A stretch of DNA of 63,993 bases, filler included, from Perkinsus olseni (taxonomy: Eukaryota), in assembly GCA_013115125.1 (NCBI GenBank). It is 4 parts of 4 records of this genome, joined end to end, with 100 filler letters (N's around TTAATTAATTAA, not from the genome) between each part and the next. Parts side by side here need not be neighbours in the genome. Positions count along the whole stretch, not along the records: positions 16,939 to 33,767 come from JABANN010000667.1; positions 33,868 to 50,683 come from JABANN010000668.1; positions 50,784 to 63,993 come from JABANN010000768.1; 1 more part is not named here. One strand, written 5' to 3'. Positions 24,977-63,290 of the stretch are shown piece after piece. The notes beneath the pieces are model-generated. The model was not told where the DNA came from. It was given only the letters and a program-made list of their open reading frames with translations, and did not search any database. Position numbers and translations under genes: made by a program. Positions within the stretch are counted from its first letter, which is position 1. Every line of letters begins with the position of its first letter.

Positions 24977-25450
24977 GCTCTGCTTACCCTTATCCATCCC
25001 TTGAGGTAAAGATCATCGGCGACCTTCCAGATTTCCTTCTCGAACGGGGCCGCTGTGAATCCAAACTCGTCAGACGGGAAGTAGCCTGATATCTCAAACC
25101 TGAACAGGATCAGCAGCAGCAGCAGCTGGAGCTGGCTCCCTGCGAGGAGGTCCCAGGTTCGATTCCCCGTGGGACCTCCTGGACTAGTGCGGCGGTTGGT
25201 CATCAGGAGAACATCTATCATCTCGATCTACCCGGCGAAGCTTCAACTACTTTCGCATCTTGCCTTGTTCGACCTAGGATACTCCCCGACGTTCACTCTG
25301 GACCTCCTCGCGACGCCAAAATCCCCAAAATTACCCCCAGCGCACTACCGATATTTCCCCAACATCTCATGCATATCATCTTCGGCATAGTCTGTCTTGA
25401 TCTCCGGTCGTGGCTCAGGCTTCCTGTAGCGTCTATTGGACTGAAGATAC
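24977..25450 (-). CDS. Two exons of a hypothetical protein with acylphosphatase-like segment (partial model)
   Basis: Splicing out intron 25100-25348 gives ..HEMLGKY R|FEISGYF..IWKVADDLYLKGWIR, resembling the acylphosphatase F-E-x-x-G..L-x-L-x-G-W-V pattern. Confidence 0.45.
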
Positions 25451-26749
25451 GAAACAACGGATGGGAATCGATCTCATATTGAAGTAGTGTGGATCCCTTC
25501 TCGGCAATACCGGGAATGACAAGATTAATCTCGCGCGAAGATGATCGTAGATTTTGGTATGATGGACAGAAGCGTGGAGGCTGATTTTCATACTAACATC
25601 AGTCTATTGTTATTGCCTCGAAGACCACCAGTTGCTCGTTCGGCCGCCGTCAAGGCTGTCGATAGAAGTTGTACTTGTGACTCGCGTGAGTTGCCCCGTC
25701 ACACGCATCCAATTCCCTCTCAAAAACCCCGTCAAAGAAGACTGTTGCTGAGGTCCACTGGAAACAGGACTCCCAGCACCAAGGAAAGAGGAAGCAACGA
25801 CATCAGCTGCTGATGCCTCCTACCGTCGGCGGCTTCATGTACGGGTCGTATCTTTTGCCATAAAACGGTATCCCCTTCACTGTTTTGCACCTCTCCATCG
25901 GGTATGACAGTAGATTCTTACCTGAGAGAACCCCCACGTTACGCTGGCAAGCTGCAGGAAGGGAAACGGAGTTAAAGCAAACAGGTCTTGTAGGTCCTGC
26001 GGAGAGGCTCGGCGACCGCAGCCACCAATCACTTCAATTACTCAAAGTAACGAGGAAACGGTGTCAGAAGTAATAATCTTTTCCTCTCACTACCACATTC
26101 TTATCTACTATGTCTTCCAGAGACGCTCAGTCCGCGTCACGGATCCTCTGCAGCCCCCTAGTACTACCAGGCTTGTAGTCAGGACAGGGCTTCCGCGTGA
26201 TGGACAACTGTTCATCCACCTTCGTCTTAGCGTAGTTGTGGACCATGCGTATCCTGGACCATCTCAACATCCGATAGAAATGTATCAACTCTGCAGAATG
26301 CCGAAATTATTTTTTCCGCCAATCATCTGTGGCACAGCAGCTCTAGGCTCCAAGGCCGATGTTGTAACCACTTGAAATGGTAATTTTTATATCGCTGATC
26401 CTGCCTTGTTCCGATAAGAAGTGAAATTTGACAACTCTGTACAGCTCCGGAATTATTTTCTTCGTTGACTATCTGTAGCACGCTCTGCTGTAGCAAGCGG
26501 CAGCAGAGACAGATAGCGATGTTCATACTCCCATCGTCCACTGAAGTTCCACGAAAAAACTAAAAACATACTTTACTACGCGAAGCTCATATTTGACAGA
26601 CAGAAAATGGGCCTACGAAGCCAAGTCTAGAATCGTCACCCTCCTCACACTGAACGCGACAGCCCCACCATCACGACCAACCATCTATCACGCGGCGGGT
26701 CATGCGGTCCTCCCCTCACCCCCTTCTTACTCTCCCCTATGACCAAAGC

Positions 26750-60002: not shown

Positions 60003-60343
60003 CATTTGTCGTAACGGCTGTGTTGTGCTTGGGGGAACGGGATTTGACTTTTTCGCATCGCTCCGCTTGCTGTGTTCCTGAGGCTTTCGAGATCGATTAT
60101 TGGCATACTTGGATATTCGCTCGTTCGGGAGATATCTTAGGGTGGCCCTGGAATTCCGGAAGATACTTCTTCGCTGTGCGGTGCGTGATTACTGGTGTGA
60201 CAGAAGATTCGGACCATCTGTGGCGAGGGCTTGTGGTGAATTGTGAGAGATCCTGAGGTCGAAGCGTGCTCATGACACCACTGGAAGATACGTCCGGTCA
60301 TCTGTAGTATTATTCGTTTCTCTCTCTTCTTTCGTACCACACC

Positions 60344-63290
60344 ATGCCCAGCTTTACTCCCGCAACGGAAGGCACCACATCGTGTGCATTGCCGACGGTC
60401 GAGAGGGACTTCCTACGACCAGTGGAGCTCGTCTGCACGGACATGGACGGAACCGTCCTGGGTCCTGATCACAGTATTCATGAGGTTACGTTCGAGAAGA
60501 TACATCGGGCGCAGAAACTCGGATGTGGGATAGTCGGTTTTTGACGGGGGTGATTTTTGGGCGTTCAGGTTCGGTGATACCCGCGACAGGTCGATGCAGA
60601 ATGTCGGCAGCTAAGTGCTTCTCTAAGGGGGGGATCGACTTGTAAGGTCTTCAGGGGAGATTGATACGGTCCGGTCGAGATAATTGTCCAGAGCTGATCT
60701 AAGTGTTTAACCCGGACGATTCTCTGGCTACCAACGGTATCTATGAACTCAGAATGGATGAAACTGGAGAGAAATCCATGGGAGATATCTGCGTAAATTA
60801 ACGTGTGGCCGAGCAAAAAGACCCTATTTCCTCGATGAGAGTGAGCGCTGCCCGCGAAACTGTCACCATTCGTTAGCTGGCCGGCGGATTGAGGACTGGC
60901 TCCATCTGAACCGGGATCGGCAATCTTTATGGGACGACGTTAAGGGCGAATTACAACTTTGGCCAGACTCCCAGAGGGTTGAATGGGCTACAGCTTTAAA
61001 TGCCTCCATCCGGAAGGCTTTCATTGGGGGGAATATACGTGTTGCTTTGATGGAAGCAATACTCGAAGCCCTAAGGGAGGGGTGGCACAATTGGCACAAT
61101 TGGCAGCCAAGTGGCGCCTCATCTCGGATGCCGAGATCAGATTGCTGGCCGGTTAGAACGAGGCCTTCCAAACACCCTTGGTGCCCCATCATGCGGGAAG
61201 CATGGACCAATTTTTCTTCAGCTGAAGAATTTAGTGATGAAGTGAGAGCCTCCATTGAAGAGGAAGTAAGATTAGGAAGTAAGAGTGGAAGAGGTCACGG
61301 CAGATGAAGCCCACAGAGTCGGAGCGGTGACTCGGTTAGGCTGTATTCCGACTTCTCCACAGCAGCGGCTCTTATTGAAAGTTAGATCAGTCAGTGATAA
61401 TGAGAAGGAATGGCGTCAATGGTGTGATCGACAGTAACTTGTCGCAGACAATATAGTTACCGCTGTGCCGCCTCGCTGGAGCAACGGTGTCTCTCATCAG
61501 CCCGGGAATCTGGTGATGACTTCAACCAGCTGTGGGTGGAATTAGTCAGACTAGCAGCACCATACTTTTAGCCCGCTCCCAAATTTGACCACCTTTGAGG
61601 GCCTTACTACTCGGGGCACGCCATGTGTAGAGTTATTCGGGTTGGCAAGAGCTTTTACACGATGATATGGAGAGTATCTTAGGTTGATCCTAGTTCGTCA
61701 TGGGTAGGTCGTGGTTGTTGTTAGATACTCCCTGCCTGGTGTTTATCTCAATGGCTGTGTTGTCTATGACGAGGAGGGCCAGGTGGCGTCGAATGTTGTG
61801 CTGGACTATCAAATAGTAAGACCAGAGGAGGGGAATATTGGAATTTGCTTAGCTATGGCCAAACTAAGGAGAAATAATTCAGACCCGTCACCCCCTCTTC
61901 GATGAACCACTCAGAATCAACACCGAAATTACCTTGTACGCGTAAGATTTGGTTGCAATGTGGGACTCCCGGAATCTGAAGTCCAGTCAATAGCTTTCGA
62001 TGAAGCGGCCGATCTCGGAGCGAACTGCGCTCGAAAGTCGGTTCATTTACAATCGGCAGGTTTGTGATTTGGTCAACGGCCTTCGACATCAGCAAGAAGT
62101 GATCCCCCTCGTTTGTAGCGGCGATCGGGTCTTGGCGCCGTTTACCAACGACTTTGTCAAGTGCATGGAACGAATGTAGGCATCGCGGGAATTCTAGCGG
62201 GCATGTGAACTTGAGAGTGAAGGATTTTTGGCACAGTACTTGAATCAGCCAATGAATAGCCGTGAATTCACAGTGCACTTGCACGTGCAGACTCATTCCA
62301 TCACAGTATCGGGTAGAATCTAATCTCTCACGGAGGAATGATGAACATGTAGCCCCGTTTTCGCTGGGTATCCGTTCGACCGGCTCTTGATGCCATTTGC
62401 CAAAGGAATATGAGTTCGCATGAGCCATGGGCAGCATCGGTGATATGGTGGTGTTGTAGTGGTCGATTTGCTTCCCTTTTTTACCTCTTGATGTTTTTCC
62501 TCAGGTTTGACGATCCGTCGCCTGAGGACTGCGGCGGCTACGATGGTCTCCTGGAGAAGGTTCGCGATGATGCTATCCCGGTTCATATGGTAAGAATTGT
62601 TGATGCTCTTGCCGGGGATCGACCCGGCGACCTCTGGCGAAGCAGGCCAGCAGCAGTCCCTCTCACCCAGGGTCACCGAGGGTCTCTCTGATATCCACCT
62701 GGAGAGCCGTCGCCGAGATTCTCATTAATATCTCGGAATTCGTCGAGTGCAGGTGTATGTCAGGTTCATGTCATCACTCGGGATCCAGATTATATGAAAG
62801 GAGAAGTTGTTGGACGGCTGAAGGACTTCGCTGAGTAGGGCTGTGGCGGAAGGTCTGAGGTTCGAATCCCACGGGGTGCATTTTTAGATCTCACGGATGT
62901 GCGGCTGCCCAGTCGTTGTCATTCCTCTGCGATATAATACCGGCAGCGGCCAACAAAGGATACGGCATTCGTGTCCTGAAGGAGCGTCTTGGATGTGAGG
63001 GGTTGCTGGTGCTGACGTTTTTACCCGGGTAAAAACGCTCCGTTGTAGACAACTCGATCGCTTGTATTGGCGATGCGATGAACGATAAGGAGATGCTGCA
63101 GAACGCTGATGTTCCGGTCGTCATGGGTAACGCAATGAATGAAATCAAGGTGATTCTCGCGCGCCACGAAATTAGACTTTAATCGTTTTCTCACCAGACC
63201 CTGGGTAAACTGAAGGTTAACTCTAACGACCACGCGGAGCTCCCGGGCGTCGCAGATTTGATGAATCGTATCATAGCGGCCAAGCAGTAA
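60344..63290 (+). CDS. Cof-type HAD-superfamily hydrolase (possibly disrupted in a middle exon)
   Basis: CTDMDGTVL, PATGR, GVYLNG, ANKG, IGDAMNDKEML and MGNA, with a stop at 63290. Confidence 0.9.

Follow-up and report, generated by a model that had tools for sequence, protein, structure and literature searches.

Why should one short non-coding word recur in Perkinsus olseni, on both strands and between unrelated flanks, around a ribosomal-protein gene and its neighbouring small nucleolar RNA (snoRNA) candidates? The question was raised by a 63,993-nt stretch of the P. olseni genome (assembly GCA_013115125.1; the window), in which an initial annotation had described a dispersed motif, GAGTATCYT(N)AGGTYGA, clustered around RPL7A. 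We found that this motif is the left half of a composite element of ~40 bp, which is real, larger and far more widespread than first described, and apparently undescribed. The window consists of four joined contigs, with identical N-plus-spacer blocks at about 16839, 33768 and 50684. Positions 1-16838 are contig C2975 and C2976 starts at 16939; the breaks at ~33768 and ~50684 are inferred from the spacers, and the last two contigs are taken to be C2977 and C2978. In the contigs sampled, length decreases as the number rises, so that the four are probably neighbours in size only. Because the window is a join of contigs, the copies around RPL7A and the cluster at 52-64 kb are not shown to be neighbours. 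Pattern searches covered the whole assembly (39.9 Mb, 3,353 contigs), with the reversed sequence as control.

The motif is one half of a composite element

The consensus of the element is RN GWATCTT AGGTYGA W SCNDGC AAGATAC RRAWT AGGTYRA, that is, in order, an arm, a core, an inverted arm, and a tail containing a second AGGTYRA. The paired arms, GWATCTT-N14-AAGATWC, occur at 233 exact sites genome-wide and at none in the reversed sequence; likewise, the exact 15-mer GTATCTTGAGGTCGA has 39 copies versus 0, and a looser 20-bp core 697 versus 0. The spacing is strict. When sites were seeded on the arms alone, a spacer of 14 gave 93 sites and spacers of 11-13 and 15-17 gave 2-6 each, and the core was present in 83 of the 89 unique sites found at spacer 14. 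In a search for the core and second arm with 3-14 bases between them, 108 matches were obtained, and most of the 100 listed were exactly 28 bp long.

In 60 of the arms-only-seeded sites, T occupies position 11 in 58 and G occupies position 20 in 56, whereas positions 15, 16 and 18 each vary among three bases, the fourth being avoided (heterogeneity p 8e-12). The core slides by one base with the remaining parts holding position. In total, the element carries ~33 bits of information, 24 of them in the first 21 bases, and conservation extends 12 bp beyond the second arm. Among 301 unique sites, the start of a near-exact second arm falls at position 22 in 132 and position 37 in 21, which places the arm starts 21 bp apart (about two helical turns) or, in a minor class (hereafter the long class), 36 bp apart; by a looser rule, 108 of the 301 have neither second arm. 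The arm word also stands free, with 536 free sites and 836 occurrences in total versus 121 reversed, and frames a second core, CGCTGTGCGC.

The flanks are unrelated, as first described: apart from other short motifs, no similarity was seen across 30 loci. We looked for subfamilies at 8 free positions and found none, pairwise identity being near independence, with high-identity pairs slightly in excess (1.03% vs 0.79%). The strict 28-bp pattern had no exact match in viral, prokaryote or metagenome collections, and the 12 metagenome matches to the 20-bp pattern, which we took as chance, were all single and lacked both a second arm and a neighbour. Two protein searches aimed at other Perkinsus species returned P. 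olseni proteins only, or nothing. No second copy of window positions 25-33 kb was found in the genome, and no fixed spacing of the element to the words GCCACGAA or GCGGAGCGA.

Copies in the window

We scanned the window with a weight matrix trained on 12 stretches of other contigs, calling a site strong at 16 bits or more. This identified 12 strong sites, whereas the reversed window had 0 and so did every one of 10 Markov simulations. At all 13 places named by the initial annotation the described letters are present, and the motif it wrote down is real, although only 2 of the 13 match that consensus exactly. Eight of these copies reach 16 bits, four score 9.6-13.1, and the one at 30543, being a variant whose core is palindromic, scores 1.1. 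Four strong copies had been overlooked, at 28442(-), 30787(+), 55699(+) and 57512(+). In order of position, the copies are:

25243-25284 (-): complete element in a predicted intron, 39.3 bits; location from the gene finder only.
28400-28444 (-): long-class element (arms 36 bp apart) in a coding open reading frame (ORF) identical to a P. olseni protein, where it encodes GNLRLKRACREGERY, 35.2 bits.
30517-30562 (both strands): two variants, each an arm plus palindromic GAGGTCGACCT, placed back to back within the first intron of the gene that lies upstream of RPL7A on the minus strand, 12.1 and 1.1 bits.
30785-30826 (+): weak element 53 bp before the RPL7A start codon, overlooked previously, 17.1 bits.
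30964-31005 (+): complete element with arm, core, inverted arm and tail in RPL7A intron 1, 50.6 bits; intron placed by tblastn of P. chesapeaki RPL7A.
32441-32485 (+): long-class element in a spacer of the snoRNA cluster, second arm at +37, 16.4 bits.
32579-32623 (+): weak long-class element past the snoRNA cluster, second arm at +37, 11.1 bits.
54424-54468 (-): long-class element, antisense in a spliced intron (joint 54371-54824), 23.6 bits.
55697-55738 (+): complete element filling a predicted 49-nt intron, overlooked previously, 46.2 bits; intron from the gene finder only.
57510-57551 (+): exonic element, overlooked previously, within the gap-free RNA-contig pieces 57377-57665 and 57357-57708, 33.9 bits.
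58495-58527 (+): element core in unspliced RNA pieces (58273-58694, 57960-58694), intron retention being possible, 28.1 bits.
59254-59286 (-): antisense copy of the element core, located at the 5' end of a spliced intron (joint 59256-59522), 25.6 bits.
59714-59755 (+): element with a 13-bp spacer directly past an RNA exon piece ending at 59707, in a probable short intron, 23.9 bits.
60247-60291 (+): weak long-class element directly upstream of a putative trans-splice acceptor at 60306, where an RNA contig has a loose end, 13.1 bits.
61672-61713 (+): sense copy of the element core that lacks the second arm, in a spliced intron (joint 60641-61725), 29.0 bits.

The RNA evidence comes from contigs of four runs aligned to window positions 52000-63800, three of the four being only guessed to be, or unlabelled as, RNA; 15 of the 31 splice joints were listed. 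These contigs have no value for ranking expression, and no expression level was inferred from depth. In this region, spliced introns hold two antisense copies and one sense copy, unspliced pieces hold two, and two weak copies lie upstream of the loose RNA end at 60306, which we take to be a spliced-leader acceptor. The earlier statement that all copies are intronic or intergenic does not hold, since the copies at 57512 and 58497 lie in unspliced RNA-contig pieces and that at 28442 is inside a 765-codon ORF. RPL7A intron 1 and the snoRNA spacer do share the 21-nt match noted previously, but it is close to the consensus and its first 20 bases recur on three other contigs.

Abundance and genomic placement

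In a blind sample of 40 contig starts taken at set numbers (249 kb), there were 21 sites and none in the reversed sequence, which suggests by extrapolation ~3,400 copies genome-wide, with a twofold uncertainty. The copies are clumped: 34 of the 43 five-kb tiles of this sample had no site, and contigs picked for having matches ranged from 0.7 to 25.7 sites per 10 kb, with a local density of up to one copy per 400 bp. Sites number 77 in C2627 and 52 in C2729, the two densest contigs, each over about 30 kb, with both strands used and strong GC skew; a centromeric nature of these two was considered. We also observed that the element-dense regions (window 52000-63900, C2627 and C2729) have long A/T-tract introns and GC skew of up to 0.3. 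A weak AA/TT peak near 11-11.5 bp was present in 123 introns of element-rich genes and absent from 210 introns of element-free genes, a comparison made without a significance test. The telomere repeat (TTTAGGG)3 was sought in the assembly and not found.

The placement of copies relative to genes was taken from the rough exon and intron classes of a gene finder self-trained on 678 kb, most of which had been picked for element matches. By these classes, 164 of 259 sites are wholly intronic, 12 at an intron edge, 25 wholly exonic, 16 at an exon edge and 42 between genes, so that 176 are intronic when edges are included, in a sample where introns make up 30% of bases. Intronic copies are nearly balanced by strand (86 sense vs 78 antisense), and sites are spread evenly along genes. 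Density was 6.3-11.4 per 10 kb in introns, the top value being reached in introns shorter than 70 nt, and 4.7 in the 250 bp before 127 predicted starts, the sample mean being 3.8. In the blind subset used for gene classes (229 kb, contigs below 2 kb and one AT-rich contig having been dropped), 14 copies were intronic and 7 exonic.

Element words in coding DNA

The arm word is in excess in coding DNA. In 86 predicted exons of at least 450 nt, GWATCTT occurs 57 times versus 19 in synonymous shuffles, AAGATAC is the top 7-mer (37 vs 10.7), and full sites number 6 versus 0-2. Of the 57 exonic GWATCTT words, 10 could sit in a missed in-frame intron, compared with 52 of 516 random positions. The density of arms in exons rises with that in neighbouring introns (2.6, 6.4 and 13.4 per 10 kb; rho 0.34, n=51 tiles), the control giving 2.0, 0.9 and 1.9 per 10 kb. 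In the 2-kb exon of the gene beside RPL7A, there are 17 matches to the element vocabulary, compared with 2.4 in synonymous shuffles (maximum 8 in 2,000) and 0.7 in codon-order shuffles, the vocabulary list having been chosen after the data were seen. Four exonic full sites were compared with solved structures; the alignment to an adenylation domain is gap-free, and that to MORN5 has a small indel at the site. The long single exon with the adenylation domain (L139:2886-5393, contig C3240) is close to bacterial nonribosomal peptide synthetase (NRPS) enzymes, and may be of horizontal origin.

Companion words and lone B-boxes

Other long words are enriched alongside the element in the 678-kb sample. 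RGCGGAGCGAAGC occurs 82 times versus 9 reversed, CGCGCCACGAAATT 90 versus 28, and TGATCGATTT is enriched as well; lone tRNA-type B-boxes number 101 versus 2 reversed and are biased to introns. All companion words tested are intron-biased and co-vary with the element. From sequence alone, the element correlates with lone B-boxes over 129 tiles (rho 0.40) and 93 genes (0.42), and its density per gene correlates with three other words at rho 0.33-0.42, compared with 0.12 for the control (n=93). No T-stem covariation was found in the flanks of 100 B-box copies, as expected of B-boxes kept for binding rather than of fresh tRNA copies.

In the window, RGCGGAGCGAAGC lies at 27869-27879, 28601-28611, 29442-29453 and 59547-59558, twice in frame in the long ORF. 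TGATCGATTT lies at 27436-27463 and 58926-58950, and is often found as the palindrome AATCGATCACGTGATCGATT or 4 bases after CGCKCGCC. The word CRCGCGCCACGAAATT, whose 8-base core counts 90 versus 28 reversed, lies at 52766-52796, 59095-59125 and 63146-63176; the stretch 59090-59122 is common to RNA contigs from other loci, as loose ends. Lone B-boxes at 25156-25166 and 55388-55398 have a variable-loop-like 5' flank and a trailing T run. A 5S rRNA origin of CATACCACAC or of the element, suggested by a resemblance, found no support, the contexts having no longer homology.

What the element may be

The initial annotation had proposed the binding site of a general regulatory factor. A site read by protein at the level of DNA is indeed the best fit, because of the fixed spacing, the position-specific degeneracy, the use of both strands, and the lack of stem covariation and of homologous flanks; for a Rap1/Abf1/Reb1-like role at the promoters of ribosomal-protein and snoRNA genes we found no support. 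We consider recognition by protein in some form probable, counting in the drive and promoter explanations weighed below. With confidence evenly poised, we favour a cooperative protein-binding site whose role in domains of gene bodies would be architectural or anti-silencing. What we observed is the anatomy, spacing, abundance, strand symmetry, intron bias, clumping and co-enrichment of the element and its excess in coding DNA; binding by a protein, the protein concerned and the chromatin role are deduced. The element would be a composite site on double-stranded DNA, in which one factor or domain would read the arm word GWATCTT/AAGATWC, also when it stands alone or around other cores, and a partner would read AGGTYGA plus SCNDG. 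An arm word framing several cores is a combinatorial pattern typical of cooperating DNA-binding proteins. Point changes would have assembled the sites where they now stand, introns allowing this most freely, and the sites would gather in domains of gene bodies together with lone B-boxes and further long words; there, their likeliest job would be to hold gene regions open or to anchor them, in the manner of insulator or anti-silencing sites. Candidate readers encoded in the genome include 7 AP2 matches on two contigs, in twos and threes, four C2H2 fingers in one 302-aa frame, and 14 Myb matches, none of them linked to the site. AAGATWC presumably resembles plant GARP/Myb motifs.

A more far-reaching version, which we hold only tentatively, is a distributed gene-body DNA code of a few long protein-read words, dense in certain chromosomal domains, carried by introns down to minimal ones that consist of a single site, and, where introns are absent, written into codons and shaping protein. 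If true, tiny introns would gain a function at the DNA level, and the code could be a domain-marking system older than the unusual chromatin of dinoflagellates.

Several observations weigh against the architectural reading. None of the 21 blind-sample copies is intergenic, which is odd for a boundary element, and 38 predicted introns shorter than 62 nt contain the element, many of them almost nothing else, which suits intron seeding. Selection alone would hardly produce a 33-bit site thousands of times over, and linkage at p<0.01 was seen for 9 of the 125 pairs of distant positions, mostly within the tail, about 1 being expected. In the case of the remaining two exonic full sites, homology to CK1 and Rpp25 ends where the element begins, which probably reflects missed introns; the CK1 copy lies within an in-frame GT..AG 54-mer. 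A search for TFIIIC B-block proteins gave a single marginal match. Finally, the gene finder recovered 9 of the 12 RNA introns used as its seed and merges neighbouring genes, which makes the exon and intron classes rough. An old insertion origin, with later selection for binding, may also apply.

Insertion is central to the alternative that fares best, although we judge it unlikely: a tiny mobile or copied introner-like piece of about 40-46 bp would have entered genes in both orientations and seeded or enlarged introns, and the present copies would be its worn relics. Insertion would easily account for thousands of copies of a 33-bit string, and it would fit the peak of density in the shortest introns, many of 44-61 nt being almost pure element, as well as the capacity of the element ends to supply GT or AG, the resemblance of the inverted 7-bp pair to a terminal repeat, the local tandem copies and the weak long-range linkage. 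However, the copies have no fixed ends, the distances to the nearer splice site being 0-17+ and 5-19+ nt, and 85 of the 164 intronic copies lie in predicted introns longer than 150 nt. No target-site duplication was found (best 5/251 in 2,214 tests), and boundary repeats average 2.06 nt compared with 2.01 nt in other introns (p 0.65, 51 vs 940). Conservation continues past the second arm, decay is non-uniform, and there are no subfamilies at the free positions and no near-identical families, 192 sites falling into 142 haplotypes. Insertion also leaves the free arms and the exon excess unaccounted for. CpG decay was rejected as the source of the Y/R positions (CpG observed/expected 0.89-1.01, no depletion). 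A miniature inverted-repeat transposable element or decayed transposon end, the latter being the explanation that the initial annotation had set against its own, was rejected as well: the 30 loci compared lack homologous flanks, the inverted repeats are not terminal, and the tail runs beyond the second arm.

Molecular drive without host function appears improbable. A protein would bind the word, repair or gene conversion would favour the bound alleles, or these would mutate less, and sites would accumulate wherever the process operates, codons included. It parallels bacterial uptake sequences, which reshape bacterial proteomes (PMC2817400). The coding excess that tracks the local domain, the vocabulary-rich 2-kb exon and the joint rise of several unrelated words would all be expected of drive. 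Biased gene conversion would usually make tracts richer in GC, whereas dense tiles are AT-richer (0.47 vs 0.50); one genome cannot tell drive from selection.

The six copies or variants within 2.1 kb around RPL7A and the snoRNAs, together with the weak copies before the RPL7A start and the putative trans-splice site and the slight excess upstream of predicted starts, would fit a general regulatory factor site of promoter type that serves ribosomal-protein and snoRNA genes. We nevertheless regard this as quite improbable, in view of the intron and gene-body distribution, with no intergenic copy in the blind sample, the highest densities in ordinary genes and an upstream density below that of introns. 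Moreover, element density is unrelated to RPL7A-like codon bias (rho -0.09, n=151). No copy lies near the one further ribosomal-protein-like gene recognised by eye, which is acidic P2-like (contig C1215) and as one gene is a weak test.

The 28-bp arm-to-arm unit with its asymmetric spacer resembles dif or lox sites in layout, and the genome encodes tyrosine-recombinase domains (15 matches). A site for site-specific recombination or integration is nonetheless highly improbable, as the arms have just 7 bp and are often missing, thousands of intronic copies would be expected to destabilise the genome, the flanks show neither exchange nor homology, and the 28-bp pattern is absent from the viral, prokaryote and metagenome collections. 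An RNA hairpin or splicing signal in pre-mRNA is largely refuted and scarcely credible. In its favour, the arms could pair as a 7-bp stem, copies are intron-biased and free arm words in introns are 2:1 sense (328 vs 160). Against it, Watson-Crick pairing between the two arms does not differ from the shuffled value at any of the 10 pairs (n=178), copies lie in either orientation equally often, with the two antisense copies in RNA-supported introns among them, and no Rfam family matches the element. A U12-type donor was rejected, since the element starts at the donor in just 3 of 86 sense intronic copies and uses both strands.

RPL7A and other features of the window

The genes and snoRNA candidates around which the motif was first described are the following:

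26750-30708 (-): host gene of an 859-aa P. olseni hypothetical protein, with the 2-kb exon that holds the 17 in-frame vocabulary matches; the long ORF is identical to the P. olseni protein.
30840-31983 (+): RPL7A gene, three exons, 97% identical to a P. chesapeaki protein.
32106-32232 (+): SNORD15-like C/D snoRNA candidate, Rfam E 5e-6, 38.4 bits, below the gathering threshold of 75.
32341-32435 (+): snoR44/J54-like C/D snoRNA candidate, Rfam E 2.3e-5, 39.7 bits, below the gathering threshold of 48.

The presence of snoRNAs next to RPL7A is thus supported for two C/D-like genes, with scores below Rfam gathering. Further C/D-box candidates, by box pattern only, lie at ~32250-32285 and ~32505-32570; two candidates share a terminal ATGGGAATCTYTCTGA. 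Two repeats lie nearby: a dispersed one with a GC-rich hairpin at 29960-30195, parts of which match about a dozen places at 70-91%, and a second at 29668-29790 with an inverted copy at 33412-33536.

Elsewhere in the window, a predicted gene at 54235-58034 (+) has SAM-like and double-stranded-RNA-binding-like segments by eye, and a gene at 60306-63290 (+), also recognised by eye, encodes a HAD-like hydrolase, has its putative leader acceptor at 60306 and is alternatively spliced within its 1,083-nt second intron. Retroelement-like gag/endonuclease frames and a transposase-like remnant were seen by eye at 50784-52798 (-) and 14990-16563 (+), two of the ORFs having no Pfam match. The G run at 63922-63993 is probably an assembly artefact. 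Outside the window, a 10-kb contig with 15% GC (L142, C3350) is probably organellar.

Comparison with known systems

In the literature, of which subscription papers were covered to a limited extent and no Perkinsus genome paper came to light, we found no account of perkinsid cis-elements or chromatin organisation, nor of the motif strings, which is a weak negative. Perkinsids are the sister group of dinoflagellates, and a 33-bit site with ~3,400 copies would offer a precise handle on a putative abundant DNA-binding complex. With it, one could test whether short introns are retained for the DNA-binding sites that they carry, and whether sites of this kind can invade eukaryotic coding sequence as uptake sequences do in bacteria. 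Should the introner-like explanation be true instead, the element would be an unusually small intron-generating unit.

Yeast Rap1, Abf1, Reb1 and Tbf1 have abundant, orientation-independent sites, and that of Abf1 is bipartite with a fixed spacer. The sites of these general regulatory factors are promoter-centred and enriched at ribosomal and snoRNA genes; the P. olseni element is not promoter-centred, and of the two ribosomal-protein genes examined it occurs in RPL7A and is absent near the P2-like gene. Introners of Amoebophrya, Micromonas and Aureococcus (PMC7789003) likewise form short introns of a repeated unit with an inverted repeat, and in a sister lineage, but have inverted repeats that join the intron ends, and direct repeats of 3-5 nt at the boundaries, neither of which is seen here. 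Bacterial DNA uptake sequences (PMC2817400) are likewise dispersed over both strands in thousands of copies, which extend into coding DNA and skew the encoded peptides; they are short and tied to transformation, whereas the P. olseni element is eukaryotic, modular, intron-biased and clumped.

The periodic An/Tn clusters (PATCs) of Caenorhabditis elegans are a proposed anti-silencing mark that is similarly intron-borne, variable by domain and accompanied by longer, A/T-tract-rich introns, although a PATC is a 10-bp periodicity and the element a word (PMC4947018). In Plasmodium, of a related phylum, the SPE2 site of the ApiAP2 protein PfSIP2 is multipart with strict spacing, has hundreds of clustered sites and a proposed chromosome-level role (PMC2829057), and tandem-AP2 candidates are also encoded in the P. 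olseni genome. SPE2 consists of two 6-bp repeats 4 bp apart, is 94% subtelomeric and lies mostly in tandem arrays (PMC2829057), whereas the P. olseni element has ~40 bp, another sequence and a dispersed placement in genes. The long motif of fixed geometry, its position-specific degeneracy, its use in either orientation and its co-clustering with B-boxes are features of architectural or insulator sites, recognised here at the level of sequence. Architectural-protein clusters with extra-TFIIIC loci in Drosophila and mammals (PMC4226948) likewise combine long sites with lone B-boxes away from tRNA genes at graded density; theirs mark domain borders, whereas the P. olseni sites fill gene-body introns over 10-30 kb.

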